A stretch of 63,597 nt of DNA, filler included, from Collodictyon triciliatum (lineage: Eukaryota): assembly GCA_043381765.1 (NCBI GenBank). It is 12 parts of 12 records of this genome, joined end to end, with 100 filler letters (N's around TTAATTAATTAA, not from the genome) between each part and the next. Parts side by side here need not be neighbours in the genome. Positions count along the whole stretch, not along the records: positions 18,045 to 23,234 come from JBHJMP010005399.1; 11 more parts are not named here. One strand, 5' to 3'. The notes beneath the pieces are model-generated. The model was given only the letters and a program-made list of their open reading frames with translations, did no database searches and was not told the DNA's origin. Shown in pieces: positions 1 to 58,200 of this stretch. Every line of letters starts with the position of its first letter. Within the stretch, counting starts at the first letter, position 1. Made by a program: the position numbers and the translations under genes.

Positions 1-229
1 GATAGTGATAGTGATAGTGATAGTGATAGTGATAGTGATAGTGATAGTGATAGTGATAGTGATAGTGATAGTGATAGTGATAGTGATAGTGATAGTGATG
101 GTGATGGTGATAGTGATAGTGATAGTGATAGTGATAGTGATAGTGATAGTGATGGTGATGGTGATGGTGATAGTGATGGTGATGGTGATGGTGATGGTGA
201 TGGTGATGGTGATGGTGATGGTGATGGTG
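1..229. repeat. (GATAGT/GATGGT)n microsatellite
   Basis: Read directly from the sequence. Confidence 0.98.
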
Positions 230-340: not shown

Positions 341-3300
341 CCTTCTTTCGAACAAAATCGACACAGTCGTCAGAAGTTTTCAGTGCACTTGACTCCAACC
401 ACGCAGATTTTCTGGGTTGATTTAGCAGAAGGGTTGTATTTCCTGATGTCAATTGGTCATGTAATTGGTTCATCGTGCCAAGCATGTCATTTACAGATGA
501 CATAAGGAGTCTCCTTAAAATATCCCTTTCAGTGTTCAGGCTTTGCCGAGTTTGTGACCAAACCAACTCTAAGGAATCCAACATACTATCAAAATGAATA
601 TCGTCTGCTCTTTTTTCCAATGTTTCTAAATCCTCGATTTCGGCGATTCTGTGAAAAATTGATCTTCATTAGCCTTTTTTTTTTTTTCATGGCATTATAT
701 ACTTCAACAAAAAATTGTTGTGTGGGTTTTTCCAGTCACATGGAAAAGCTTTTACGGTATATTTGATGATATGCCGAATGAAGAATACGACGATTCCAGA
801 GGAGTGGCAATCTGCTGTAAAAGTCGAGCAAGGGTTGCCTATGGCGCCGATGCTTAGAATGATAAAATAAAAGATGGAAAGAATATACATGAACTGCCTC
901 AACTCACATTAAATCTTAGAATCAGATAATATTTCTCCCTTAGTTTCATTTGTAGAGCTGTGGTTTGTTTTTTGTATGAGCGAATATGCTCTTCCTTTTC
1001 TAGAGATATGCCATTGATTTTGTCAGATAACTCATCGACGATTTTCTCCAAGTCTGACTTTTGTTTTCGTGTCAATTCGTGTCTCTCCTGTTCTGTCTTC
1101 AATTTTGAAATAAATTCACCGTGTTCTACTTTCAATCTGTGCTGGTCAGCATCAAATGAAGATTTTTGAAGCGTTATTTGTCTATTTTGCTCTCGTAGAG
1201 ACTCGATGTTTTGAAGCAGAAGCTGGTAATCATCTTGAACTTTGTTCATTTTTCTTGTCTGTACTTCAAGTTTTGAGGCCAATTCCTTTTCTGAAGCCCT
1301 CTGACTCTGGAGTGTGGATTCTAAATGATGTATTCTAGTCTGCTCTCTTTGATTACTTTGTTTCAGCTCTTCTACTTTTTTGTTCGACACCTCCAAAAGA
1401 GATTCTAAAGTAGATTTCTCTTGCTTCAAAACAACATTTGCTCTTTCCAGGATACTCTGCTCTGAGTTGAGGAATGAGTTGGATGATTGGCCTGTTGACA
1501 TTATACCACGGAGTTCGCGAATCTCTTTTTCTAAATGCTCCTTTGTGAATTTCAGTGTTTGAGATTCTTCTTGTAGGGAAAGTCTTTGTGTCTCTGATTC
1601 ATAAAGTGATGATTGTAGGTCATCATTAGCTGTTACCAGAGACTCGATACGATGACGGAATTCTTCCATTCGTATACGAGCCTCATTCTCTTGTTCCTTC
1701 AAAACAGATATATCCCTATCTTTATCTTCAACTAGGTACTGCAGGCGAGTTACTTCAAGCTGTGAACCAAGAGACTCCTGTTCTAACTGCTGGATGGCCA
1801 TATATTGCGATTCTAGCTTGTGTACTAATTGGTCGGCATATTGTTCCGAATCTGTCGAGTGTTGAAGACCCCTTTCTAGTTGAGTCTTTTCAAGATAGAG
1901 GCGCCTATTCTCACCAACAAGTTTAGTATTTTCAACCTGAACCTGTTCAAAATTATCTTGAACCTCTCGCAGTCGAAGGGCTATTTGCATCTTTTCAGAG
2001 TTAATTGTCTCCGTTTTTGCTTTTTCGACTCGCAGCAAAGATGAAACTTCCAGCCATTTTTCATTAAGTTGGGACCGATCTTCTTGTAAATCTTCAATCT
2101 TTCGATTCAACTCTGCTATGGCACTTTGAAATGTCACCTGTTGGCGGGCTGTCTCGGCCAACTCACTAGCAGTAGATATGTTTCTCAAATCATGCTCTTC
2201 AATTTTTCTCTCTAACTCACCGCACTTTATTTCCAGTAGTTGATTTTTTTGGTTCAGAGAATCAACCATGATTTTGTAATCTTCTATAGATTCCACCAAC
2301 TCCTGCTTCTCCATTTCCATTTTGAGTTTCAATTCATCCATTTTTAAGGTTGATGCAGATATTGTTTGTCTTTCTGATAAAACCTTTTCTTTTTCTTGTG
2401 ATAAAGAGTCTAGTTTCAACGAATAATCATTGACCTCTGTTTCTAATTTTTGGATGGTATCCAAAAGCAAAGGTATATCCTGTGCAGTCAAATGATTCGG
2501 ATTAAACCCAGAATTTGATATTCCATCGCTTTCTGTCGGTATTGATTGGTTGATAGGGAGTTTGAATTCTCTCTTTGTGCGAGAAAGCTGCTGGATGGTA
2601 TCGGCATAGTGCTCGTTTTCTTCGGAGAGCGCTGCACATTGTTCTCTGAGCTTTTCTACTTCCATCTCAAGAGTTTTCAAAGGATGAGAAACAACTCCAT
2701 TTTCATCTATAAGGCTATCTGACCCTGCTGTATTCTGGACGTTGATCCCCACTAGTTCTGCCCTGAGCTGCTGTATCAGCTCGTCATTCAGAGAGAGCTT
2801 GGCCTCATACTCTATTTGCTGTTGTTCCCATTCTTTTTGTGCACTAGCCATTTTTGCAGCACCTTCTTGTTGCACAGAGTTAAGTTGGTCAGATAGGATC
2901 CTCCATTGATTCTGCAGAGCAGAGGAAGACTCCAATAGGCTGGATCTTTCTTCGGTCAGTTCGTCAACTTGCAGAGTCAGGCGCGCTTTTTCTGCTTGAA
3001 GTTCAATAATGGTGCGATTTGCTTTAGCAAAGTCAACAGATACCTGACCTTCGGCCTGGTCAGATAAGGTTTTCACTGTTTCTTCCAAGACTACTCTTTG
3101 TTGGGAGGATATTTTTAATTCTGTGCTCAGTTGATCGATTTTTTGCTGGAGGTCTTGAATTTCTTTCTTGCTCTCATCCAAAGTGGCAACCCATCTGGAA
3201 GTTTCTTCCTGTCGCTCAGTTTCCAATTGCTTCTTGAGCAACTTGGCCTGCATGGATATGCTTTTGTTTTCCTCATGAGCTATGAGTATTTGATCTTCTA

Positions 3301-4986
3301 GTTGAGTGACTTGCTCCTCTAGAGCAGATCTCTGGAGTTCAAGTTCTTTGATGGCTGCTGCATGGTTGGAATGGAGGGATGATTGTGTGGATTTGAATTG
3401 ATCAATAGTGTTTGAAAGCTGTACCACTAAGCTATCCCTTACTTGAGATAGTTCTTTCAGTTCTGACTCCAACTTTTGAACACGCAGCGTAGCGGACGTC
3501 TTTTCTTGCTGTATTTCTCTCATTTTTTGGTTTAGATTAGAAACCTCTTCGGAAAAGCCAGATGGGGACTCTGTGGATGCCAATTGAAGCTGTCGCTGAA
3601 GATTAATTATCTGGTCATTAGATGCTGACAGCTGAACCATCGAAAGATCATACTTTGATTCCAATTCCTTCTTTTCTGCCATGAGTGCATCCTTTGATAA
3701 AATCATATCCTTGAGCCTCTGGGACGTCTCAGCTTTTTCTTGAGTTTCCATTCGAAGTTGAGCCTCTGTTTCTGATAAAAGCGTTTTTAAGTGAATCGTT
3801 TCCCTGTCTGATGAAGATACCCTTTGTTGAAGCGCTGTGATTTCAGAACGCATTTGCGTTATTTGAGTAGAAGCTTGTTGTCCAGATTCATGCTGTAGGG
3901 TGGATGTATCTTTTAGGATAGAGACTTCTCTTGATCGTTTTGCTACTTCTTCCTTGATGGATTGATTTTCGATTCTCAAAGCAGACAGCTTAGCTTCTAA
4001 TCCGGCAATATTTTTTAAGTAGCCGCCAGTTTCTTGCTTATGCAGTTCCTGAACGGAGGAAGAAATCAACACATGTATTGGCGTTATTTGTTAGAAAAAA
4101 ATAAGATAATTGTTTACACTAAAAATATGAGAAATATGTAACCCTTACAAGTTGAAGATTTTGCTCCTTTTTCAACGAATTTATTTGTTGTTTGAGCTCT
4201 TCGTTTTCTGCTGTGAGAATTCGTGTGCTTGCCTTAGACTGCTCTAAAGTCAGCTCTAACGTCGACGTTTTCTTTGATTGGTCCCGTGTCACGGTTGATT
4301 GTTGGGTCATTTGTTCATACAACATACTGTATTTTGATGACTCTTCTTTTAACTTATTTTCCAGCCAAGATAATCGATCATTTTTGCTTTTAATATCCTC
4401 TTGTGATGATTGAATCTGCTGATTTTGCTCGACTACTTTTTGTACAGATGCACTTAGTTTCTCCTGTGATTCTCTCAGCGCATCTTCAAGTCTCTGGATA
4501 ATCGATGCGTATTGGGAGGAAGCCACTCCATCTGTCTCGGATGATGATCGCTGATAAGATAAAAAGTAATTGGTTAGATCATTCATCACACATGAGGATT
4601 TATATAAAGATGGACTTTATGAGTCAAAGACCAGCAAAGCATAACAGACTATCACCTGTGGGATTGTCTGGGTCACAAGCGATGTACTTGGGCTTTTCGG
4701 TAGCTTCAATAGGCGAACTGTGGCAGCTCTCCCAGGGACATAAGTTCCCTCCGCTTTTTGCGTTTTAAGCTGCTCGAACTACATTCATTACAATTTTTAT
4801 TCTGCTGGTCGTACGTGTAAATTATGAATGCATCTCTAAGGGGTACGAAAACATATAAAAATAAGACGGAGGAGGTCACGTTCTTTCGGGCCTATGCGAC
4901 CATGGAAAAAAAAATGATACAATCTCTCGTCCACGCAGTGCTTTCGCTGCCTTCTCCTCGGGATTCTGATTCTTTGCAGGCTCCAT
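341..4986 (-). CDS. Large coiled-coil (golgin/AKAP9-like) protein, multi-exon, 3' partial
   Basis: ORF 899..4072 (1057 aa) is E/Q/K/L/S-rich with heptad periodicity. Upstream exons splice in frame: ATG 4986 MEPAKNQNPEEKAAKALRGREI|LKTQKAEG...TIPQ|RSSSETDG. A further exon at ~341-590 ends in a GT donor before the terminal microsatellite. Confidence 0.75.
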
Positions 4987-5192: not shown

Positions 5193-5292
5193 NNNNNNNN
5201 NNNNNNNNNNNNNNNNNNNNNNNNNNNNNNNNNNNNTTAATTAATTAANNNNNNNNNNNNNNNNNNNNNNNNNNNNNNNNNNNNNNNNNNNN
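5193..5292. other. Artificial contig spacer N44-TTAATTAATTAA-N44 (first of 11; the others start at 10485, 17945, 23235, 28523, 33810, 39093, 44372, 49649, 54922 and 60193)
   Basis: Identical 100-nt spacer each time, with stop codons in all six frames. Confidence 0.99.
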
Positions 5293-17944: not shown

Positions 17945-18044
17945 NNNNNNNNNNNNNNNNNNNNNNNNNNNNNNNNNNNNNNNNNNNNTTAATTAATTAA
18001 NNNNNNNNNNNNNNNNNNNNNNNNNNNNNNNNNNNNNNNNNNNN

Positions 18045-21000
18045 GATGGCTCTAAAATCGTTTCTGGAAGTGATGATAATACAGTCAAAATTTGGAATCT
18101 TTCTGATGGAGCTTTGATTCGCACGTTGACTGGTCATACTAGTGTTGTTTCCAGTGTTACTGTTACTCCCGATGGCTCAAAAATTGTTTCTGGAAGTGCT
18201 GATAGAACAATCAAAATTTGGAATATTTCTGATGGAGCTTTGATTCGCACATTGACTGGTCATAATAGTCAAGTTTACAGTGTTGCTGTTTCTCCTGATG
18301 GCTCAAAAATTGTTTCAGGAAGTTTTGATAGAACAATCAAAATATGGAATCTTTCTGATGGAACTTTTATTCGCACGTTGACTGGTCATACTGGTTATGT
18401 TATGAGTGTTGCTGTTACTCCTGATGGTTCAAAAATTGTTTCTGGAAGTGCTGATAGAACAATCAAAATTTGGAATATTTCTGACGGAGCTTTGATTCGC
18501 ACATTGACTGGTCATACTGATATCGTTTGGAGTGTTGCTGTTACTCCTGATGGCTCAAAAATTGTTTCTGGAAGCAGGGATACAACAATTAAAATTTGGA
18601 ATCTTTCTGATGGAGCTTTGATTCGCACATTGACTGGTCATACCAGTAGTGTTGATAGTGTTGCTGTTACTCCTGATGGCTCAAAAATTGTTTCAGGAAG
18701 TAGGGATACAACAATTAAAATTTGGAATCTTTCTGATGGAGCTTTGATTCGCACATTGACTGGTCATACTAGTTATGTTAACAGTGTTGCTGTTACTCCT
18801 GATGGCTCAAGAATTGTTTCTGGAAGTTATGATAAAACAATCAAAATTTGGGATGCTCCAGAGTTACTTTGTTCTGCTGGTCAGTTTTATGATACAGTTA
18901 CAAAGTCATGTCAACTATGCCCATCCGGAAGCTATAGTGCTGGAGGTGCCTTGTCTTGTTCTTCATGTCCTGCTGGCACATACAATCCTTCAACAGGTTC
19001 TACAAATGTTGGTGCTTGTATATCATGCGCAGCTGGCACATACAATCCATCAACAGGTTCTACAAATGTTGGTGCTTGTATATCATGCGCAGCTGGCACA
19101 TACAATCCATCAACAGGTTCAACAAGTGTTGGTGCTTGTCTTTCATGTGCAGCTGGAACATACAACCCATCTGTTGGTCAAGCAACATGTCTTTCATGTG
19201 TAGCTGGTACATACAACCCATCAACGGGTTCTACAAATGTTGATTCCTGTCTTTCATGTGCAGCTGGCACATACAATCCATCAACTGGTAAGTCTGCTTG
19301 TCTTTCATGCGCAGCTGGAAAATACAATCCATCAACAGGTTCTACAAGTGTTGGTGCCTGTCTTTCATGTCCTGCTGGCACATACAATCCATCAACGGGT
19401 TCTACAAATGTTGATTCCTGTCTTTCATGTGCAGCTGGCACATACAACCCATCAACAGGTTCTACAAATGTTGGTGCTTGTCTTTCATGTGCAGCTGGCA
19501 AATACAATCAATTAACTGGTCAAGCAATCTGTCTTTCATGTGCAGCTGGCACATACAATCCGTCAACCGGTCAAGCAACCTGTCTTTCATGTGTAGCTGG
19601 TACATACAACCCATCAACGGGTTCTACAAATGTTGGAGCCTGTCTTTCATGTGCAGCTGGCACATACAATCCGTCAACCGGTCAAGCAACCTGTCTTTCA
19701 TGCGCAGCTGGCACATACAACCCATCAACAGGTTCTACAAGTGTTGGAGCCTGTCTTTCATGTGCAGCTGGTACATATAATCCATCAACAGGTTCTACAA
19801 ATGTTGGTGCTTGTCTTTCATGTGCAGCTGGTACATATAATCCATTAATTGGTCAAGCAACCTGTATTTCATGTGCAGCTGGCACATACAATCCATCAAC
19901 AGGTTCTACAAGTGTTGGAGCCTGTCTTTCATGTGCAGCTGGCACATACAATCCATCAACAGGTTCTACAAATGTTGGTGCTTGTCTTTCATGTGCAGCT
20001 GGTACATACAATCCATCAACTGGTCAAGCAACCTGTATTTCATGTGCAGCTGGTACATACAATCCATCAACTGGTCAAGCAACCTGTCTTTCATGTGTAG
20101 CTGGTACATACAATCCATCAACTGGGCAGTCTGCCTGTATTTCATGTGCAGCTGGCACATACAACCCATTAATTGGTTCTAAAAGTGTTGGAGCCTGTCT
20201 TTCATGCGCAGCTGGCACATACAATCAATTAACTGGTCAAGCAATCTGTCTTTCATGTGCAGCAGGTACATACAATCCATTAATTGGTCAAGCAACCTGT
20301 ATTTCATGTGCAGCTGGTACATACAATCCATTAATTGGTTCTACAAGTGTTGGAGCCTGTCTTTCATGTGAAAATGGAACATACAACCCATCAATTGGTC
20401 AGTCTACCTGTATTACATGTGCAGCTGGAACACACAACCCATTAATTGGTTCTACAAGTGTTGGAGCCTGTATCTCATGCGCAGCTGGCACATACAATCC
20501 ATTAATTGGTCAAGCAACCTGTCTTTCATGTGCAGCTGGCACATACAACCCATTTATTGGTCAAGCAACCTGTATTTCATGTGCAGCTGGTACATACAAT
20601 CCATCAACTGGTCAAGCTACATGTCTTTCATGTGCAGCTGGCACATACAATCCATCAACGGGTTCTAAAAGTGTTGGAGCCTGTATTTCATGTGCAGCTG
20701 GTACATTCAATCCATCAAGTGGTTCTACAAGTATTGCTGCCTGTCTTCCATGCGCAGCTGGCACATACAATCCATCAAGTGGTTCTACAAGTATTGCTGC
20801 CTGTCTTTCATGCGCAGCTGGCACATATAATCAATTAACTGGTCAAGCAACCTGTCTTTCATGTGCAACTGGCACATACAATCCTTTAAATGGCTCTTCT
20901 TCTATTGAGAATTGCTTATCGTGTGAACCAGGAACATTCAATGATAAAAAGGGGCAAATTAAATGTAATCTATGTGAGCCAGGAACTTACACCAGCGATA

Positions 21001-23234
21001 AAGGAAGGAATATTTGCCAAGATTGCCCACCTGGGCAATACAACAGCAAATACGGTGAAATGGAATGTACTTTGTGTCCTTCTGGGACATACAACTCTTT
21101 TAAAAAGAGTAACAGTTCTTCATTCTGTATTGAATGCGAACCAGGAAATTTTAATAGTGTGATTGGACAAGATAAATGTGATGAATGTCCCACCGGGTTC
21201 TATTCGAATGCAAGAGGACAGAAATTCTGCTCGCCATGCTCTTTTGGACAATACTCAAACAGAACAAAATCAACAGCATGCGAACTATGTCCAGAAGGCA
21301 CATTTAATACAAATATAGGTTCCCCTAACATCGAAAGCTGCCAAAGCTGCCCTCAAGGAACATTCTCATCTGTTTCAGGAAAACTTGTGTGTGATTTGTG
21401 TCCCCCTGGAAAATATAGCGATTTACCAGGTCAAAATAATTGTTTCATATGTCCCAACGGAACTTATAGCACCACCTATGGAGCAACTAGTCTAAATTCT
21501 TGCCTTAAATGCCCTGTTGGAACCTATGGAGACGAAACGAAAATCTCTTGCACCTCATGCCCAGCTGGCACATTCAATAATATCGAGGGCTCATTCGGAA
21601 TGTCTTCATGCATGAAATGTTCACAAGGAAGTTACAGTATAAGAGGTAGCTCAACTTGTACAGAGTGCTCACCTGGATATTTTGCACCGGATTTTACTGT
21701 GAATGGTTGTGGCAAGTGCCAAGCTTGTGCAGAAGGCACGTACAACTCAAACTCGGGCTCATATGGAAACAAATCATGTATCGAATGTCCACAAGGCACT
21801 TGGAATGATAAAGATGGTCAAGCATCATGCTCATCGTGTCCAGCTGGTACATTCAACAATAAAACTGGCTCACTAAATCAATCGCAATGTATTTCATGTC
21901 CAAATGGAAGCTACAGCTCAGAAAGAAGCTCATCATGTAGTCTATGCTTATCAGGATATTATCAAAAAGAAGACATTATAAAAGACTCAAGCTCATGCTA
22001 TGCTTGTCCAAAAGGCACATTCAACTCAAACTCCGGCTCATATGGAAACTCATCATGTATCGAATGTCCACAAGGTACTTGGAATGATAAGGATGGTCAA
22101 GCATCATGCACATCATGTCTAGCCGGAACATATAATAACAAAACTGGCTCACTAAATCAATCGCAATGTATTTCATGTCCAAATGGAAGCTACAGCTCAG
22201 AAAGAAGCGCATCATGCAGTCTATGTTTATCAGGATTCTATCAAAAAGAAGACATTATAAAAGACTCAAGCTCATGCTATGCTTGTCCAAAAGGCACATT
22301 CAACACGAAATCCGGCTCATATGGAAATAATTCATGTATTGAGTGTCCACAAGGTACTTGGAATGATAGAGATGGTCAAGCATCATGCACATCATGCCCA
22401 GCTGGTACATTCAACAATAAAACTGGCTCACTCGATGAATCATCATGTATTACATGTCCAAATGGAAGCTACAGCTCAGAAAGAAGCTCATCGTGCACTT
22501 TGTGCTCATCAGGATTCTTTCAAAAAGAGGTAGTCGCAAAAGACCAGAAATCATGCTATGCTTGTCCAAAAGGTACATTCAACTCAATATCCGGTTCATA
22601 TGGAAATGCATCATGTATCGAATGTCCACAAGGTACTTGGAATGATAGAGATGGTCAAGCATCATGCACATCATGTCTAGCTGGGACATTCAACAATCAA
22701 ACTGGTTTATTCAATCAATCATCATGCATTTCATGTCCAAATGGAAGTTATACTCCAGAAGGAAGCGCATCATGCAGCTTATGCTTATCAGGATTCTTTC
22801 AAAAAGAAGGAATCATAAAAGACTCAAAATCGTGCTATGCTTGTCCAAAAGGCACATTCAACTCAATATCCGGCTCATATGGAAACACATCGTGCACCGA
22901 ATGTCCACAAGGCACTTGGAACGATAGAGATGGTCAAGCATCATGCACGTCATGTCCAGCGGGTACATTCAACGATAAAACTGGCTCATCCGATCAATCA
23001 TCATGTATTTCATGTCCAAATGGAAGCTACAGCTCAGAAAGAAGCTCATCATGCAGTTTATGCTTATCAGGATTCTTTCAAAAAGAAGGAATCATAAAAG
23101 ACTCAAAATCGTGCTATGATTGTCCAAAAGGCTCATTCAACTCAATATCCGGTTCATATGGAAATGCATCATGTATCGAATGTCCACAAGGTACTTGGAA
23201 TGATAGAGATGGTCAAGCATCATGCACATCATGT
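18045..23234 (+). CDS. WD40-repeat protein fused to a long Cys-rich (ephrin-receptor-like/GCC2-GCC3-type CxxC) repeat array; intronless, partial at both ends
   Basis: One open frame spans the whole 5190-bp contig. It holds 6.5 GH...W(N/D) repeats with a 126-nt period (18045-18853), then dozens of C-x-x-G-T-Y/F...C-x-x-C units. Confidence 0.92.
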
Positions 23235-23497
23235 NNNNNNNNNNNNNNNNNNNNNNNNNNNNNNNNNNNNNNNNNNNNTTAATTAATTAANNNNNNNNNN
23301 NNNNNNNNNNNNNNNNNNNNNNNNNNNNNNNNNNTTTTGGTTTTTTTGGTTTTTTTGGTTTGTTTGTTTTTTGCTCGAGTAGCAAGAAAAAATGAACATC
23401 ACTACATAGAAATAACGACATGATAGTATCGATAATGTGTCATGATTTTTTAATCACTATTATTTACATTTTCAAGGTATGTTGTTGTATTCAATTA

Positions 23498-39345: not shown

Positions 39346-39409
39346 CCTTTATAATTACTAAATGCTACTTTAAACCCTATCCAGTTATGAACTTGTGAAA
39401 AATCCGCTC

Positions 39410-41086
39410 ATGACGCCCAGCAGTTTTTCATTCGACACCCTTCTGAGGCTACAACACTCCTACGAACCAAAAAACCAGTCCATTGACCACTGTTCTCAAT
39501 TACTCATCAAAAGGGAAGGACTACAAACGATACCATCCAGTATATTTACGCTTACATGCCTGTCCTCTCTGATACTCTATGAGAATTATTTATCATCTTT
39601 ACCGTCGGACATATCGTTGCTGGTTCACCTTAGAGCTATAGACGTGTCTGAAAACCGTATTGTCTCTTTGCCGAACTCCATTTCTCTATTAGAGAATCTT
39701 ACAGACCTCAACCTCAGCACTAACACACTCGGCTATTTTCCGTCGGTCATATGTTCAATAAAGAATCTAAGGATACTTGATTTGTCATTCAACCAGCTCT
39801 CATCCCTCCCGCAAGAATTATATATGATGACAAGTCTCGGCTCCCTTAATGTGTCCGTAAATATGCTATCAATAATGCCGGACGGAACATCGGGACTGGT
39901 TAATCTTCACAGTCTTTACATTTCAGAAAATCACTTTCCCGTATTTCCGCCCAAAGTGTTGCTTCTAACCCGCTTGACTAGCTTGTATATCGCAAAAAAT
40001 ATGGTTTGTAATAGAGTTCAATCATATTTTACATCGCTTAAAGATGTTCTTTTAATTAATGAATTTATTAATTATACTTCTCGCAAAATAGTTCGAAGTG
40101 CTTCCTCCGCATATCACTGCGCTGACGAATCTTGTTGATTTTTACACCGAGACAGACCTCTATGACTTTGTGTATGAACCTTCAGGAGAAGGCGGTGACA
40201 TTACATATTATAATGGATATCTTTTTATCAAATCAGCACCTCGAGGTATAACCAGCCTTCCATGCTGGAATAATACGGATGAGAATGATGATGGTATTTC
40301 GGTTTCGCAACACCTCAGAAAACTGCACTTGTATGATGTTGCTGTATGTTGTTGTTGTTGATTTTTTTTTTTAAAAAAAAAAAAGGCAATCTATTCATAA
40401 ATGAATCGGATAATTAATGATGTGGCAGGGCGAAAATGACATGAGGGTGGATTGGGAACCAAGCCAGCAGCAATTGTTATACGAATCGCTGAGTTTCTCG
40501 GGTTGGAATGTGGTAGATATGTCCACAGGCGTATCTCTCCTGACAAATCTGACCTACATGAATGTTAGCTATGCTGGGGTATAAACCTTGTAATTGTCGT
40601 GTTTTGATCTTCCGTGTATAAGTTATCATTATCCCTTAAGATTGACTATTATCTATAAAAAAAATTAATCAAAAATTGGAAACACAGCTCACTGCACTTC
40701 CTGGTGCTATTTGTCTGATTTCTGGACTTAAAATACTGAACATATCAAGCAACCAGGTGTGTTTGGCTATGATTGAATATGAACCAAAATTTGATATATG
40801 GCTGTCTACTTCTTTAAAAACACACATTATTATTATATTATTCATTGAAGATTATGAATTCACATTATAAATTAAACGTAGATTTCAAAGTTGTCTTGTT
40901 TAATCAACAATCTCAGGAGTCTTCAAAGCTTGGATATATCAAATAATCAAGTAAATTGAATAAATTAATATTTCTGATTACAAGTCCTTTTCATCAGGTT
41001 ACAATGTACGTGTTGTTTTTGATAAGAAAAAATATTCTTTATAGGTTGTTGATTTATGCTTCAGCTGTGGCGCCAACAGGGATTGA
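39410..41086 (+). CDS. Leucine-rich repeat protein (LRR-A), 6 exons, possibly 5' partial
   Basis: 23-aa LxxLxLxxNxLxxLP repeats. Exons 39410-40003, 40092-40343, 40429-40578, 40688-40756, 40882-40950, 41045-41086, all joined by phase-0 GT-AG introns. Confidence 0.85.
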
Positions 41087-49779: not shown

Positions 49780-51747
49780 TCTAACGCGGTGTCTTTTCTT
49801 TTCTCCAATCCTTTCTTTCCTGTATTCTTTTCTTTTCTTCCGTTCTCTTTTCTTTTCTTGAACGTGAGGTATGATGTCTCTGGATTTGTCTTGAAATCTC
49901 GTTTGCTTGTAATGCCCTCTGGATTTCCGTGAAATTGTGGTAGCTCAATTATCTAATTATTTATTCAAAAGCAAGAAGGTACAGATAAGATGGTGATTTT
50001 ATCAATCACATTATCTGCAAGCTTCAATAAATGGTCGACCAGATGCAAAGAGGCTATGGATTTTAATCAATTGTTTCCAATTTACAACACCTTATTATTC
50101 GAAGCATCCAGGTATTCGAGATTGCAGAGTCGGTTGATACCCTCAGGAATACTCGTTATCTTGTTGGTGTTACGTGGTTGCTCGGTTTTATTATTTGAAC
50201 ATATTACTTATTGAAATCAAAATTGAAAATGATTTTTTTTTGATACCTTGTTGTTTGAAATATCGAGAGCTTTGATAGAAGTCAGACAAAACAGATGCTC
50301 TGGGATGTCGGTGAGCTATGTCATTCGCATTGGCATTTAGTGTACATAAATTTACGCTGAGTTATTGATTCATTAAGATCATTACGTGATTTTCTGAGAG
50401 ATTCAAAAAGGTCATGTTTTTTTAAAAGTGTGATGCTCTCTGGCAAAGTTGTAAGCCTCCTTCTGCATAGGCTGAATGAATGGAATTCGATTTGCTCCCT
50501 TTTTGGAGTCCATCCTGGCTCCGAGATTGATTCTAACTGTGTTTGTGGTTTACGTTGCTTTTTTTTTCTTTATTGTTTTTGAAAATATATAGCAAATTGT
50601 CTGTATCATCATCGATATATTTACCATCTCAAAAAGCTGCAAATTTCGAATTTGCTTGTAACTCAAGCACATTTTGTAATGGTAAAACGGAAGAGCTGTG
50701 ATGCCAAGCGGTGCTATCTTCAAGTGTACCCTTCCAGACTTGTCCACAATATCCAGACTTTGCAGATTTGTGAGTGCTGTGATTTTCAGCGGGAGCTCCT
50801 CTATCTAAACACATGATTGTTGGCCACTTTTTCCGAGAACATCAACATCCATATATCAAAAACTTGAATAATTTAACACCTACAGGGTTTTCCGCCATAT
50901 GCAGTTCTTTCAGACCGGTCAAAAACCTTATTTCCGGTGGCAAAGATGACAGGCTATTGTCATCAACATCGAGCATTGTGAGACCAGTCAAACACGATAT
51001 TTCTGGTGGTAGGGATGACAGCTGATTCTCATGCAAATAAAGCTGTGTGAGACCAGTCAAACGCGATATTCCTCGAGGCAGCGACGACAAAGTATTTACA
51101 CAAACATTAATACCATTGAGACCAGTCAAACACGATATTTCTAGGGGCAGTGACGACAACTCGTTATTATTAAGATTAAGCTGTGTGAGACCAGTCAAAC
51201 ATGATATTCCTAACGGTAGTGAAATAAGCTTATTTATATGACCATGAAGAGATGACAGACCAGTCAGTTTTGATATTGCTGGAGGCAGTGAAGACAGTTG
51301 ATTGTAACCAACATTAAGGTGAATGAGACCAGTCAAGCATGATATTCCTGGAGGCAGTGACGACAGTTGATTGCCATTAACATTAAGAACTTTGATGCTT
51401 GTCAAACATGATATTCCCGGAGGCAGTGACGACAGCTGATTGCTTTCAACATGAAGAAATTCGATGCCTCTCAGTCGTGATATCTCTGGAGGTAGGGACG
51501 AAAGTTGATTTCTACTAACATTAAGAACTTTGATGCCTGACAAAAACGATATTTCTGGAGGCAGGGACAACAGTTGATTGTAAGAGATATCCAGTTCCTC
51601 CAGACGATCCAAAAGGAACACACCACGAGGCACAATAGTGAAACGCTTTCCGACGATATTGAGGCTCAAAGAGTTTCTCAACGTGGTGATGTCAGAAACC
51701 TTTGCGAGTCGCCGGAGCTCCTCCAAAGACGCAGTGTGTTCGTCCAT
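49780..51747 (-). CDS. Leucine-rich repeat protein (LRR-B), paralog of LRR-A, with a 1-nt frameshift in exon 3
   Basis: Exon 51747-50884 holds 11 LRRs. Exons 50804-50625, 50536-50386 (151 nt), 50315-50247 and 50159-50091 match LRR-A exons in order and sequence. The last exons are uncertain. Confidence 0.8.
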
Positions 51748-51832
51748 GCCAGCAGAAGTGGGGGAGGCAACTTGGGCGGATTCTGAGGATTCTGAGGATG
51801 TTGTGAGCGTTGTGAGCGAGTCGTGTGTTTCA

Positions 51833-52048
51833 GTTTGTTTGTTTGTTTGTTTGTTTGTTTGTTTGTTTGTTTGTTTGTTTGTTTGTTTGTTTGTTTGTTT
51901 GTTTGTTTGTTTGTTTGTTTGTTTGTTTGTTTGTTTGTTTGTTTGGTTGTTTGTTTGTTTGGTTGTTTGTTTGTTTGGTTGTTTGGTTGTTTGTTTGTTT
52001 GGTTGTTTGGTTGTTTGGTTGTGTGTTTCATTTTGTTTGTTTGTTTGT
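51833..52048. repeat. (TTTG)n microsatellite upstream of LRR-B
   Basis: Read directly from the sequence. Confidence 0.97.
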
Positions 52049-52619
52049 TGCATAGCGCTCCTTACTTTATGTGGCTGTGTTTGACAAATGACTCATGCAA
52101 AAGAGCAGTGCTTGTGCGTGTTGACGTGTGAAAGCACAGCGCGTTGTTATTGGACGGCGTGGTTTGCTTTTGGAGGAGGGAGAATGACGGTGCGCGATTA
52201 TGTTGTGGCTCTGACTTGAACGTCTAAAAGGCCACACCTTCAATGCCGAACCACCGATAGAAAAGTGGATGTATGTATCGTCTGTTTATGTTTATATAAT
52301 TGCGGGATTTTTTTTTATTTGCTGCTTTGGTTGTGCTGTGTTGTTTGAGGCTTTTTGTGTTGTGTTGTTTGAGGCTTGATTGTAATATGTTCATTGTCAC
52401 AAGGAGCAAATATAGGGTGGCGCTTGTGTCATGCGCCGCAATATTCCCACAGAATCTCGCTTGCATTCGGCCGTGGTGGATGATGAACACATGTTATAAA
52501 ATCAATAATACTGTATATTCCGAAATAGAAAACATATCATCACAATTATATGGAGCACTACAGCCTCTTTCGTCCTTTATCTCCCAGGTTTTTTTTTTTT
52601 TTTGTTGTTGTTTTTAACT

Positions 52620-54170
52620 GCATCTAGGGCTTAAATAGGGGATGGCGAATATCATGCGGCTCTTTTCACATACATCTCTTCCATTGATATCACAGTATGG
52701 AAGAATGAGTGTACGTCAGCAAGCTATTCAAGAGGCTGTATTGGACAAGGCTTTCCCGCCTGGATAGATAGATTTCTCGTCTCATCAAGTAATACGCTGA
52801 AAGAAGCACCCATACCACATGAGGACCGCATCATATGTCTTCCTTGTGACTTCCCACAGCATCCTAGAGTAGTGTGGCATTTGGTATTGCGCGCAAAATA
52901 GGATGTTGGAGGTCTGAGTTGATCAGGAGCACAATCAATCTGGCACATCTTCTTGTGAGCGGATTCGATTACTTTTTGAGAGAGCACTAAATAAGCGTGA
53001 ATTCGATTGGGTTGTATCCAATGGGGCTCACGCTGCATCGTGGGGAAGTTATTGTTGCATGGAATACACGCACAGCTATCTAGAGCTCTCCATCACCGAT
53101 ATTGAGCAGTAAAGTACAGTATCTTGAAATTCGGGCGAGTGCGATGGATAAGATGCCAGAATACTCGCTGTCAAAATCCTTTCGGATGGGTAAGCATATT
53201 TGTCCACCATCTCATCGCGAGCGATGTCCATGCAATACCAGGCGTTATGGGTCCCAGTCCTCCCTCTGTAGGTGGCTTAGTGAGCGTCTTGATATTATAT
53301 TCTGATTATTCGTAGTGATGAAGTTGCGGCAGATGTCTTCCAGCTCCTTCAGCCTCTTGAGGTTCAGCAAAGTGCCTTTCATGTGGTAGATAAGGGTCGA
53401 CACCATCACTTGGTTCCAGAACCTTACTTTCCCCACGTCCGAGAGATGAAAGTTGCTCCACACTGATATTTTCGACTTGATGTCCTCAACCGGGCTTGTC
53501 CATTTGTTATCCGATTGTGGACCGAAGATGATACCAAGATACTTGAGTGGATGTGACGGTGGCTTCCACACGATGTTCCCTAGAAACATATGTGCATCCT
53601 GAAAACCGAAAAGAATTCCATCTGTCTTGTCGTAGTTGATTCTTCTGCTGACAGCTCGTGTGTATTCTTGCATGCATTTGTTGGCGAGTGTGGCGCCTTC
53701 GGGAGACCGTAAGATGAATGCTATGTCGTCTGCATATTGAAGTAGCAGTTGGTTGTGCACCTTGTTTTGGTTTCGAAAGTGGTTTGCAAGGCAGTCAGCG
53801 ACAAAGTTGCAGAGCAGTGGTGCAAGTGGGCAGCCTTGATACACCCCGCTCTGTCTTTGAATTGCATCAGTATGTCCGTGTGCCGTGGGTATCCTCGCTG
53901 TTGCATTGTCGTGCAGTTTCTTGATAAGACTGGTGAATCCGGTGCAGAAGCCTCTTTTGTGTAGGATGGTTTCCAGTGCTTCATGTTTCACATAGTCGTA
54001 TGCTTTCTCCAGGTCGTAGAAAATCACAGCGACGGGTGTCCCGCTTACTTGATATTCCATGTACTCTTTGTTGACAAACCAGGTGTTTGTGTCGATGTTC
54101 CTTCCGTTCATGAAGCCAATCTGCTCTTTGGATATGAGTTGGTCGGTGATGGGTAATATGCGATTTCTGA
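52620..54170 (-). mobile_element. 5'-truncated, degenerate non-LTR retrotransposon (L1/Tx1-like RT)
   Basis: RT motifs ISKEQIGFMNGRNI, FYDLEKAYDYV, GVYQGCPLAPLL, LQYADDI, INYDKT, LKYLGI. After a frameshift comes PTEGGLG and then an in-frame TGA. No endonuclease domain is present. Confidence 0.92.
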
Positions 54171-54647
54171 GTAATTAATAAGGCAGTACAGCATCGACGC
54201 GCGTCAACTGGGGTGTTGAAACTAGATGGTCTGTAACTTTTGGAATTTTTTTTTATTTTTTATGTATTTATTGGTTTAAGATTTGGCGTAACAATCATAT
54301 TGTTATGTATATTTAGTGCGGATTAAACAGACTTTCCTTCGTTTTCAATTTTTGTGTTTGTTTCGTCGATTTCCTCCCGAAAGCCAAAGTGTGCTTCTGC
54401 ATACTTAGAATGGTATCAGTTACAAAAGTCCAGAAACCGCAAAAGCCGCCCCGATCGAAGTAGCAACAGCAACAAGCAAAAGCTAATTACCTATTCAACC
54501 AGACAGTAAACATCTTTTTCGTGTCTTCCAATACACTTATGCCTCACCAACCTTCTTATGACAACACGGAAGATTATCCTCTTGTTTCCCGCACCCGTAT
54601 TTTTTGGTTGTTTTAGTTTGTTTTAGTTTGTTTTGCTTTTCATATCC

Positions 54648-55221: not shown

Positions 55222-58200
55222 CTAGTGCCGATAAGGGCCTTGGTAGGACGAGTCGCGGCTTTGATTATAATGGTCGAACGTGTAGTAGTCTTGCTGCTCT
55301 CCAAAGTCCACTGCATCGAAACAGTCATCATTCCTTGGCTTGTGGCGCTTGCGGTCTCTGTCTTCGTCCCTGTCGAGTTCCCTGTGTGAATGTGCAGCAA
55401 AGGAGGTGTCTCTGTCTCTCGACTTGTCTCTGGCTGGTTCTCGCAGCCTTTTTTCCTTATCTCGGTCCTGTTCGCGAACAAGCTTCACATCGCGGTCCTT
55501 ATCTCTATCTTTGCTGCGGTCAGACTCCCGGTCTTTCTTGATGTCCTTCTCCTTGCTTCTCTCGGGGTCTCGTGTTTTTGGATTTTCTTTATCTTTTTCC
55601 TTGTCAGGCCGCTTGTCCTTCTCAATGTCACGGGGACGATTGGCATCCTTCTCTTTCCCTTTATCCTTTTCGTGTTCAGGACGCTTGTCCTTACCTGAAT
55701 CCCTTTTGAGGTGTTCTTCCTTGTCCTTTCCTTTATCTTTTTCCTTGTCCTTACTCTTATCTTTGTCAGTCCGTTTATCCTTATCAGAGTCATGCGGACG
55801 TTGGCTTTCTTTTTCCTTTCCCATGTCCTTTTCTTTTCCTTGCTCAGGGCGTTTCTCTTTGCCTGAATCTTTTTGTGAGTGACTCTCCTTTTCTGGTCGC
55901 TTCTCTTTGTCTGATTCACGAGGTCGATGACTTTCTCTTCCTTTGTCTTTTTCGTGTTCGGGACGTTTGTCCTTATCAGAACCCCGTTTTAAGGAGTTTT
56001 CTTTCTCCTTCTCACTAGCCTTATCTCTGTCAGTCCGTTTATCCTTATCAGAGTCATGCGGACGTTGACTTTCTTTTTCCCTTCCCATGTCCTTTTCTTT
56101 TCCTTGCTCAGGACGTTTCTCTTTGCCTGAATCTCTTTGTGAGTGACTCTCCTTTTCCTTTTCTGGTCGCTTCTCCTTATCTGATTCACGAGTTCGATGA
56201 TTGCCCTTTTCTCTTCCTTTGTCTCTATCATGGTCGGGTTGGCCATCTTTATCAAAGCCATGAGTATGACGAGCTTCACCCACCTTTTCATTTTCCTTGC
56301 CTTTCTCCTTGCTTCGTTCATGGTAGGCTTCTTTGTCAGTGTTTTTGCTTTTTGAGCTGCTGCCTCCACTCCCGCCCATAGCCGTGCTTTTGTCTCTATT
56401 ATGGTGGTCCCGCTCTTTTTCTCGCGTGATATTGTCACGGGTATGGCGTGATTCTTTTTCTTTTTCTTTGTCGCCGGCTTTGTCACGGGATGAATTGCGA
56501 GACTCTTTCTGGTCTTCTTGACGACTTCCCTTGCGAGATGATGAACTGCGAGCTGAACTTACTGCTTCCTCCTGGTAAGGAGTCAAGGTTGTGGCAGTAA
56601 TGTCTCGACTGGGATTTCTGTCGGTATCTTGCGAGTGGTGGTGCCCTTTGGCGCCCAATGTGTCATCACGGATACTGCCCTCGGACATGATTCCATCATG
56701 CGCTCTGGTTCTTGCTTGGTTGGTGCTGCTCGACAGACCTTCAAATGGTTCGTTTTGTGGTTGCACTTGATAATTGATATATACTCTTTCGTCGGCAATC
56801 TCCGTACGAGTCTCGTCCCTGTTCGAATTCTCCTCATCATATGATCTGTTTCCATATGAGCCTATACTGTCCTTGCGGGGGGGTTCATCTAATTCTTCCA
56901 AAAACTCGTCTCGTTTATGATCATTTTGGAATAGCTTCATGTCCTTTTCTTGGTTAAGGCCGAGGCTCGCATTTGGGTATCTCTCCTTTGATGGCTCATT
57001 TTTGCCCATTGGGGGGACTGCCTGAATCGGTAGTGCCCCAAATTCTATGGTTGACATTAAATAATAGAATAGAATTACAAAAAATTGATAATGTGCATAA
57101 AAAGAAGTTATTTGTTTCATATTATTTTATTTCATATTTCCATTTAGATTGGTATGAATTATAAAGTATTGTATTTTGTCTGGCTTTTATCAAAAATATT
57201 TTGAATATGAATCTTCTATCGCGTTATTTGTTTGTTCATTTTTTATCTTTATCGTTTACAAAGAGAAAAAAATATCTAATTCATACGCGGGAAAAAGGGC
57301 TGCATCACAAATCCTTGTCCTCGGAACCCCATTTGGGCCTCAGGGTGAACTTGTGGTAGAAAAGGATAACCCAGAAGTCCAGGGGTGTTCATGGCCTGCC
57401 ACATCATCCCACCCTGTCCAAGAACAGGGTTCAATATGGGAATGCTTGGTCCATCTTGTTTCAGCCTAGAACCAGTGAATGCGTTGTTACCAGAACTAGC
57501 TCTGCTTGCTTCCTTCTTTTGACGATCGGAGTTTGAGTTTGAGTTTGAGTTTGAGTTTGACGCATCGGAGTTTCTGTTGCTCCTCCCAGTTTGTCCGTGA
57601 GAGGATGAATGCTGGTTGGATGATCGGCGACGTTCCTCTTCATCACGCCCTTCCTTTCTCGTTGATGAGGACTGAGTCTTTCTATCCGACGTGTCATCCC
57701 GTGAAGACCTCTTTCGGTCTGACCCTCGGCTGCTGCCGTTTCGTTGTTGAGATGAGGATGATTGGCCTCGTGCTGGATTTATGAGAAGGATTTGGTTGTT
57801 GGTAAAATATCTGCTGTTGATTATTTGTCATGGCGGCGTGTCCTCGTTGGTTCAAGTTGAACCAATGTATGGCCACAAGAAGCAAGAAGCAAGAAGCAAG
57901 AAGCAAGAAGCAAGAAGCAAGAAGCAAGAAGCATGAAAAGAGAAATAAGGAGAAGAGAAGAAAAAAGATACCTCCAGGATTTTTGAAGAGGCGAATTTTG
58001 TCGCTGAGCGAGCGATTTAGAACAAGCTTTTCTGGGGGAAAGTTTTTTGCGCAATTTGGGCATTCTATGGTATGATCTGCAATAATAACAAATTGCTTCA
58101 GTCAAGGGTCGCTTATACTGTATCACCATTTTTACAACTGTCCGAATTAGTTCGTGTAAAACTTTAGTATTTCTCAATAAATGAATGAATAAATAAATGA

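Follow-up and report, generated by a model that had tools for sequence, protein, structure and literature searches.

The contig JBHJMP010005399.1 (5190 nt) lies at positions 18045–23234 of the window, by which we mean the whole stretch of 63,597 nucleotides from the Collodictyon triciliatum assembly GCA_043381765.1 that was analysed here. It consists of one uninterrupted reading frame that begins at 18045 and continues for 1730 codons without a start or a stop (P0001). The first 272 residues of the encoded fragment form an array of repetitive WD40 units with a few hypervariable positions, and these are followed in frame by a cysteine-rich stalk of the Ephrin_rec_like family. With a probability of roughly 0.6, we interpret the frame as a fragment of a secreted or surface receptor or adhesin with a diversified WD40 head, from a free-living aquatic microbe. 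The pattern of hypervariable blades is already known; the fusion of WD40 units to an Ephrin_rec_like stalk looks new, as a combination of known designs that is backed by environmental DNA and is present in no listed protein.

Six full WD40 units, each of 126 nt (42 amino acids), occupy positions 18045–18800 on the plus strand in frame +1, as defined by translation, Tandem Repeats Finder (TRF), Pfam, AlphaFold2 and Foldseek. They are followed at 18801–18854 (+) by a partial seventh unit of 18 residues, DGSRIVSGSYDKTIKIWD, which supplies strands b and c of the last blade (model strands E256–261 and E266–270). The motif GATGG[CT]TC is spaced at 126 nt from 18045 to 18801, and TRF returned a period of 126 with 6.4 copies, 88% matches and no indels. 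This period, and the variable residues that follow GH and SGS, appear in the translation exactly as listed in an earlier note on this DNA. The units, described there as almost identical, are highly conserved, but their actual DNA identity is 85–94% per pair (mean 0.878 for the six full units). At the protein level the mean identity between units is 0.84, which ranks sixth among the 119 proteins compared. The Pfam WD40 model (PF00400) matches six stretches with 259.5 bits, against a cut-off of 27. Residues D11, W17 and G30-H31 are invariant in all six units, strand b carries S or T, and the canonical 'WD' is replaced by 'WN' in the six full units but kept in the seventh.

The fold predicted for this region is that of a WD40 propeller. 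An AlphaFold2 model of residues 1–302, calculated without an alignment, has a predicted local distance difference test score of 92.4 and a predicted template modelling score of 0.88, with four strands for each 42-residue unit. The best Foldseek matches were seven-bladed WD40 propellers (52–53% identity, template modelling score 0.86–0.91, root-mean-square deviation 0.7–0.9 Å), namely the WRAP-T designer proteins (PDB codes: 7big and 7bie) and PDB 2ymu, which is described as 'a highly repetitive propeller structure'. Closure of the ring is presumptive, since the fragment lacks the opening strand of its first blade and the final strand of its last.

Differences between the units are concentrated in codons 10, 12, 33, 34 and 36, which in unit k (k = 0–5) correspond to positions 18045+126k plus 27–29, 33–35, 96–98, 99–101 and 105–107 (+). 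These five codons hold 56% of all pairwise differences, where 12% would be expected. The earlier note had pointed to two strongly variable windows; residues vary at 14 of the 42 codons, not only there. DNA identity between units is 0.94 over the other 37 codons and 0.43 over the five. By the Nei-Gojobori method, the 37 scaffold codons have a nonsynonymous divergence (dN) of 0.031 and a synonymous divergence (dS) of 0.172, giving a dN/dS of 0.18, whereas dN at the five codons is 1.30 versus a dS of 0.17 in the rest of the unit. A minimum-change count requires at least 25 changes in the 15 sites of the five codons, compared with 12 in the 37 third positions elsewhere; the numbers of variable sites (13/15 versus 12/37) differ with a Fisher p of 5.5e-4. 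At several of the five codons, units are separated by two or even three base differences.

The same five positions stand out in other proteins. The WD40 matches to residues 190–400 were divided into units by means of a profile built from the six units, which yielded 119 proteins with at least six full units; 59 of these, with a mean unit identity of at least 0.6, served as the comparison set. The five positions with the highest mean entropy in those 59 proteins are again 10, 12, 33, 34 and 36, and positional entropy overall is correlated with that of the units studied here (Spearman 0.55, p = 2e-4). According to the rule of Wu et al. 2012 (PMC3419727), the residues most often contacting partners on the top face of a propeller are those termed D-1, R1-2 and R1, which correspond here to positions 10, 34 and 36. 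The model puts positions 10 and 12 in the loop that connects strands E4–8 and E13–18 (the second and third strands of the unit), positions 33 and 34 in the loop after GH and ahead of E35–40, and position 36 at the start of that strand. This mapping is based on the strand positions of the model and the published sequence rule, and it supports the earlier proposal that the variable sites are at the propeller top. A diversity-generating retroelement was rejected as the source of the variation: changes in the variable codons involve all four bases, and the reverse transcriptase of the window is on an unrelated contig.

The stalk comprises residues 273–1730 (1458 amino acids) and contains 160 cysteines, which agrees with the figure of more than 1,400 residues of CxxC repeats given previously. 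Within it are 78 motifs of the form C-x2-C-x2-G-x-[YFWH], the first at residue 289, spaced 16, 17 or 20 residues apart. Pfam assigns 37 stretches to Ephrin_rec_like (PF07699) with 724.2 bits, against a cut-off of 23.1. The propeller is joined to the first CxxC module by a linker, APELLCSAGQFYDTVTKS, at 18855–18908 (+), over which the frame is continuous and metagenome cover is available. There follow a tandem array of 17- and 20-residue modules (C-[LI]-S-C-A-A-G-T-Y-N-P-...) with 77–78% DNA identity at 18909–20884 (+), for which TRF gives periods of 51, 60 and 111 over 18962–20884; a non-repetitive middle part at 20885–21725 (+), composed of more divergent CxxC modules; and, at 21726–23234 (+), 5.4 copies of a 93-residue (279-nt) unit made of five CxxC modules (TRF period 279, 88% matches). 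A ciliate-type genetic code is unlikely and was rejected, because the frame uses CAA or CAG 57 times and nowhere contains TAA, TAG or TGA in frame.

The 93-residue units provide an internal control for the behaviour of the WD40 units. Their DNA identity is 86% and their dS 0.39, with a dN/dS of 0.24; variation is spread over 33 of the 93 codons and is nearly all two-state, and the single five-state codon encodes the free middle residue of an N-x-S triplet. Since the stalk units are without hot spots, it is the WD40 units, and not tandem repeats in this gene generally, that concentrate change at particular codons. The low dN/dS of both the scaffold codons (0.18) and the stalk units (0.24) further indicates that both parts are under purifying selection.

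The earlier note had named misassembly of the junction between WD40 units and cysteine repeats as a danger, and the junction withstood inspection. The reading frame crosses it (18854/18855) without a stop, and GC content at third codon positions (GC3) is equally low in the two halves of the gene (0.18 and 0.23). Two metagenome contigs extend over the junction: one covers 18782–19043 with 30 mismatches and no gaps, with 73 letters on the WD40 side and 189 on the stalk side, and the second covers 18752–18898 with 19 mismatches, with 103 and 44 letters, respectively. Both come from freshwater metagenome, from two runs of one study. Because they are only 87–88% identical to the contig they are homologues and not the same DNA, and therefore a related gene with the same junction exists in nature. 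Within the stalk, 151-nt metagenome contigs are identical to 21036–21186, 21438–21585 and 21577–21727, and identical or near-identical contigs of this length cover parts of 21007–21727 in runs of three studies, of freshwater and subsurface origin; stalk stretches without such cover carry no weight. Among the datasets listed as containing the contig there is no RNA dataset, and no sequencing run holds half of the sampled words.

Among the matches listed, the sequences closest to the stalk are 29–44% identical over hundreds of residues, and those with names are mostly from eukaryotes (Percolomonas, Anaeramoeba, Triparma, Aureococcus, Mnemiopsis and molluscs). In many of these proteins a different head precedes the stalk: an RCC1-like propeller in P0141 (29–335), P0160 (90–384) and P0148 of Percolomonas cosmopolitus (208–435), Kelch repeats in P0240, FG-GAP repeats in P0210 and lectin-type domains in P0124. 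TIG arrays are found in the best stalk representatives of 4000–4600 residues (TIG-headed P0366, P0370 and P0372). Several relatives have a signal-like start and a terminal cluster of membrane-like segments, and transmembrane-like segments occur later in the chain in 63 of 99 stalk-type representatives, 45 of which have three or more. On this evidence, a head followed by an Ephrin_rec_like stalk and then a membrane domain is a common design. We also observed that the nearest relatives as a group (P0364–P0373) are 4000–6500 residues long, with a signal-like start and either TIG arrays or no recognized head, and that their C-termini carry a cluster of three to six transmembrane-like segments matching no Pfam family.

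The fragment could accordingly be compared with several known systems, of which the HNWD NOD-like receptors (NLRs) of Podospora anserina (HET-E, HET-D and HET-R) were the one originally put forward. Their 42-residue WD40 units are at least 80% identical within a gene, with few hypervariable sites on the interaction surface, a pattern of fungal NLRs that has been attributed to concerted evolution together with diversifying selection (PMC12222747, PMC4986451). The likeness holds for the highly internally conserved array, with a unit identity of 0.84, and for the variable positions, which are common to the 59 comparable proteins. It fails for the architecture: HNWD proteins are intracellular HET-NACHT-WD40 proteins in which the array is the C-terminus, whereas here 1458 residues of cysteine-rich repeats follow in frame, and neither NACHT nor HET is present in the fragment, which begins inside the WD40 array. 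On its sequence, the protein does not appear to be an NLR of the HET-E/HET-D type.

A broader class is that of the Highly-Repetitive (HR) WD40 proteins of prokaryotes, fungi and protists, described by Hu et al. 2017 (PMC5587647) as having a conserved scaffold and diverse hotspot sites. High internal identity is taken there as a sign of recent duplication, and about 20% of prokaryotic WD40 proteins are placed in the class. Thresholds for internal unit identity are >0.7 (Hu 2017) or about 85% (Dyrka 2014); the value of 0.84 found here exceeds the first and is at the edge of the second. The model also matches the solved example of the class, PDB 2ymu, and the WRAP-T designs built on it. What sets the fragment apart is the fusion to an extracellular-type cysteine-rich stalk, which is absent from the 360 listed WD40-type matches and from the available part of PMC5587647.

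Repetitive WD40 heads of apparently secreted type have a precedent in five metagenome proteins (P0035, P0050, P0072, P0110 and P0112) of 2520–2610 residues, with a signal-like start and a unit identity of 0.81–0.87, which carry the source label 'WD40 repeat protein/subtilase family serine protease'. In P0050 the array spans approximately residues 67–635, roughly 14 blades, and is followed by five CARDB domains. The stalk there is thus CARDB and not Ephrin_rec_like, and none of the five matches the cysteine-rich part of the window protein. The giant propeller proteins mentioned above (P0141, P0148, P0160, P0240 and P0210) are the converse case: they share the stalk family and the placement of the head N-terminal to the stalk, but their propellers are RCC1-like, Kelch or FG-GAP rather than WD40, and no repetitive hypervariable blades were seen in them.

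A literature search on extracellular or secreted WD40 proteins brought up the plant receptor CRINKLY4 (ACR4, PpCR4), whose ectodomain is reported to consist of a seven-bladed propeller, described as WD40, a short linker, a TNFR-like cysteine-rich domain (CRD) and N-glycans (bioRxiv 10.1101/2020.08.10.245050). According to that preprint, each blade has a disulfide and the pore is filled by an N-terminal strand, whereas the blades of the window protein are without cysteine; a single CRD of about 90 residues contrasts with the at least 78 modules here, and the CRINKLY4 blades are not near-identical. CRINKLY4 further has a single transmembrane helix and a kinase, whereas the present fragment ends before its C-terminus. 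It is a small solved analogue, alike in design and not by kinship.

From these comparisons a mechanism can be proposed. The fragment would belong to the interior of a giant protein, secreted or exposed at the cell surface, in which the WD40 beta-propeller acts as a ligand-binding head. The blades would be kept nearly identical, presumably through recent duplication and recombination between units, and the top-face residues D-1, D+1, R1-3, R1-2 and R1 (nomenclature of Wu et al. 2012), which differ from blade to blade, could form a composite and easily reshuffled binding surface under diversifying selection. Recombination between near-identical units would add, remove or reorder blades and so alter that surface, and would also explain why the assembler broke inside the array. 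A rod of at least 78 two-cysteine Ephrin_rec_like (TNFR/furin-like) modules would keep the head at a distance from the cell. If the nearest stalk relatives are a guide, the missing ends would comprise a signal peptide and, at the C-terminus, a membrane anchor that probably has several membrane-spanning segments. What such a receptor or adhesin might recognize is a matter for speculation; prey, pathogens or kin can be imagined.

Several points weigh against a diversified surface receptor. The N-terminus of the protein is outside the fragment because the contig starts within the WD40 array, and the C-terminus because it ends within the array of 93-residue units, so that any signal peptide, anchor and upstream domains fall beyond it. 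Short reads reportedly do not give reliable assemblies of repetitive WD40 arrays (PMC12222747); the fragment represents at least seven blades, but given that report the number and order of the units may be wrong. The many glycosylation sequons of the stalk, offered in the earlier note as a hint of secretion, proved to be compositional: the 23 N-x-S/T sequons compare with 25.8 +/- 4.2 in shuffles of the same composition, and their number carries no weight for glycosylation because a composition rich in N, S and T yields it. The motif N-[LI]-S at unit positions 18–20 is present in six of six units here and in 35 of 1350 comparator units, and the complete lack of cysteine in the 272-residue WD40 part is unusual; as the units are copies of one another, neither is six independent observations, and the blade motif amounts to roughly one. 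A dN/dS for units had been suggested as a check and does reveal the excess of dN at the five codons over dS elsewhere, but the ratio at those codons themselves, 2.8, is weak alone with so few synonymous sites (S = 2.7). The five codons were, moreover, picked after looking, and for that reason they were tested on the other repetitive WD40 proteins. Finally, of 18 listed places in the WD40 region where metagenome contigs differ, 10 fall in the five hypervariable codons, but contigs from other units can map there, and these places may mix variation between alleles or copies with variation between units.

The search for fused relatives adds to these points. No protein with both a WD40 part and the stalk was present among the 480 listed matches of the protein searches, for which the queries were residues 190–400; 950–1450; 225–340, among shorter proteins; and 232–700, against 1.84 billion representatives. 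A WD40 array followed by Ephrin_rec_like-type repeats was found in none of the 120 listed WD40 matches to residues 190–400, and a WD40 part in none of the 339 stalk-type matches checked (120, 120 and 99). Each list holds the best 120 or 150 matches, in which proteins with many repeats outrank short fragments; the lists therefore show rarity among the best-scoring relatives and not absence, and a lower-ranked fused form, or a short fragment such as the bridging contigs, would not appear in them. At the level of loci the fusion was likewise seen in 0 of 109. A scan of JGI metagenomes with the junction kept 80 loci, 78 with WD40 only and two (L035 and L045) with stalk only, and scans with the first stalk modules gave 28 prokaryote loci and one viral locus, and in none of these does a WD40 match lie within 10 kb; the more distant WD40 matches in five of the genomes are no more than 45% identical. 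Scanning with an alignment of the 93-residue unit returned nothing in prokaryote genomes or viral contigs, the ESM Atlas gave for residues 1–700 only WD40 clusters at 0.82–0.85, below a useful score, and a full-text literature search for Ephrin_rec_like together with WD40 found nothing related.

The explanation that best survives alongside a eukaryotic surface receptor concerns the owner of the gene. The contig may be foreign to the assembly, for instance a bacterial contaminant encoding a giant secreted bacterial adhesin, and we regard this as a serious possibility at somewhat less than even odds. Codon usage, proposed as a check of the origin of the contig, gave a divided answer. The GC3 of 0.18–0.23 departs from the values of 0.37–0.57 in six other open frames of the window, but codon preference correlates best with another long frame of the window, a coiled-coil frame on a different piece (relative synonymous codon usage, r = 0.63). 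The contig is the sole piece in the window that codes from end to end as one open frame, although that other piece also holds an open frame, of 1063 codons. A foreign source would suit the identical or near-identical pieces in freshwater and subsurface metagenomes of three studies, and the most similar WD40 units, among the matches listed, are those of cyanobacterial Ser/Thr kinase-WD40 proteins (72–76% identity over one unit).

The stalk itself is not eukaryote-specific, since bacterial genome bins encode it. Prokaryotes, both bacteria and archaea, also have repetitive WD40 heads of secreted type. The 28 prokaryote stalk loci belong to Flavobacteriales, Myxococcota, Bdellovibrionales, Poseidoniales archaea and others, and the best matches reach 44% identity over 686 residues and 41% over 789. 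One such locus sits amid bacterial-type genes, with bacterial TSP3 repeats, a subtilase and a spermidine-synthase-like gene; bacterial bin proteins of 1568–2278 residues with Ephrin_rec_like and DUF4215 repeats (L083:5579-12415 (+) and L081:3-4709 (+)) adjoin the subtilase and the spermidine-synthase-like gene. Against a bacterial source, the named stalk relatives are mostly eukaryotes, and the best stalk representatives, of 4000–6500 residues, have eukaryote-style signal peptides and C-terminal multi-pass segments. On balance a protist owner is slightly favoured, a bacterium or archaeon is a substantial alternative, and a virus is very improbable. A foreign contig would change the owner and not the proposed mechanism, which does not depend on the owner's domain of life.

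A second explanation accepts the surface location but dispenses with recognition: the units would be young duplicates that differ at their five least-constrained surface positions, in a generic structural or adhesive protein. This seems to us fairly unlikely. It can draw on Hu et al. 2017 (PMC5587647), where high internal identity is taken to mean recent duplication, on the construction of the whole gene from young tandem repeats, and on the fact that the variation recorded here is that among units of one contig. Neutral drift would not, however, be expected to yield a dN of 1.30 and at least 25 changes at 15 sites against a dS of 0.17 and 12 changes at 37 third positions. At several of the five codons the units are two or three bases apart, and the stalk repeats, whose divergence is no lower (dS 0.39), are free of such hot spots.

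Less probable again is an intracellular protein, such as the C-terminal part of an NLR/STAND- or kinase-type sensor, whose cysteine repeats would coordinate metal instead of forming disulfides. In its favour, the closest WD40 units belong, with few exceptions, to cytoplasmic-type proteins, namely the cyanobacterial kinases mentioned above and NACHT, NB-ARC and TIR proteins from fungi, bacteria and archaea; whatever lies upstream in the protein is outside the fragment, and sequons are not enriched. This is countered by the strength of the stalk assignment (724 bits to Ephrin_rec_like) and by relatives with signal-like starts, heads of lectin, TIG, Kringle or PAN type and C-terminal membrane segments. 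None of the 120 listed WD40 matches has such repeats after its array, and signal-peptide proteins with repetitive WD40 heads exist. No hydrophobic segment is present anywhere in the fragment, hence none between head and stalk, and both must therefore be on the same side of any membrane. The secreted or surface location first suggested thus keeps its footing in the stalk relatives and the missing hydrophobic segment, and loses its argument from sequons.

That an assembler joined a WD40 gene to a separate gene of cysteine repeats is highly improbable: both contig ends are inside tandem repeats, short-read assemblies of such WD40 arrays have been reported as unreliable (PMC12222747) and a fused relative is found in 0 of 480 listed proteins, but the frame is unbroken across a junction with GC3 alike on its two sides (0.18 and 0.23), and two independently assembled contigs from other samples span it at 87–88% identity.

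If the protein is indeed a surface receptor or adhesin with a diversified head, it would extend the settings in which such heads are used. Near-identical WD40 blades with a hypervariable binding face have so far been discussed as intracellular NLR-type sensors of fungi and bacteria or as young prokaryotic repeats. The presence of such an array in frame with a very long stalk of extracellular type suggests that this diversifying module also operates at the cell surface, and the signal-peptide WD40-CARDB proteins point toward surface use too. With a protist as owner, the protein would become a candidate for a surface receptor that recognizes non-self or prey, in a group in which almost none are known; with a bacterium, it would be an adhesin with a shuffleable binding head. 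A more ambitious account, which we put forward as doubtful, is that a free-living aquatic protist has moved the hypervariable, recombination-prone WD40 sensor of intracellular NLR-type receptors, which serve immunity and allorecognition, outside the cell. There it would cap a giant receptor, borne on a disulfide-rich stalk and combined with a multi-pass membrane domain, that recognizes prey, pathogens or kin, diversifies by blade shuffling and has related gene copies in natural waters. With both contig ends inside repeats, the fragment also illustrates that genes of this kind are systematically broken in short-read assemblies.

The 63.6-kb window is a chain of 12 small pieces of 5171–5192 nt each, ordered by falling size. 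They are linked by an artificial joiner of the six-frame-stop type, N44-TTAATTAATTAA-N44, which is present in 11 copies, approximately every 5.29 kb (positions 5237, 10529, 17989, 23279, 28567, 33854, 39137, 44416, 49693, 54966 and 60237). The contig of interest is bounded by two of these non-biological sequences, at 17945–18044 and 23235–23334, each of which leads to an unrelated contig. Because the joiners link unrelated contigs, the DNA flanking 18045–23234 gives no genomic context, and features on different pieces are not to be read as neighbours. A run of 73 T closes the neighbouring contig (17872–17944), and long homopolymers or microsatellites are found at the ends of many pieces, which suggests that the assembly broke at simple repeats.

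Other open frames in the window are on separate pieces. The only other long one is the frame of 1063 codons at 899-4090 (-), which encodes a long coiled-coil-like protein (P0242) with no Pfam match. A frame of 634 codons at 55222-57126 (-) encodes P0243, a protein of low complexity, rich in K, E, R, D and S, with a repeated 'KEKRPE...DKDK' and no Pfam match. Leucine-rich-repeat frames are found at 50842-52092 (-), with 69-nt (23-residue) tandem units at 70–77% identity, and on another piece at 39374-40138 (+). The reverse-transcriptase frame (Pfam RVT_1, E 1.4e-23) is at 53245-54174 (-), on a separate piece, and is unrelated to the WD40/stalk gene.

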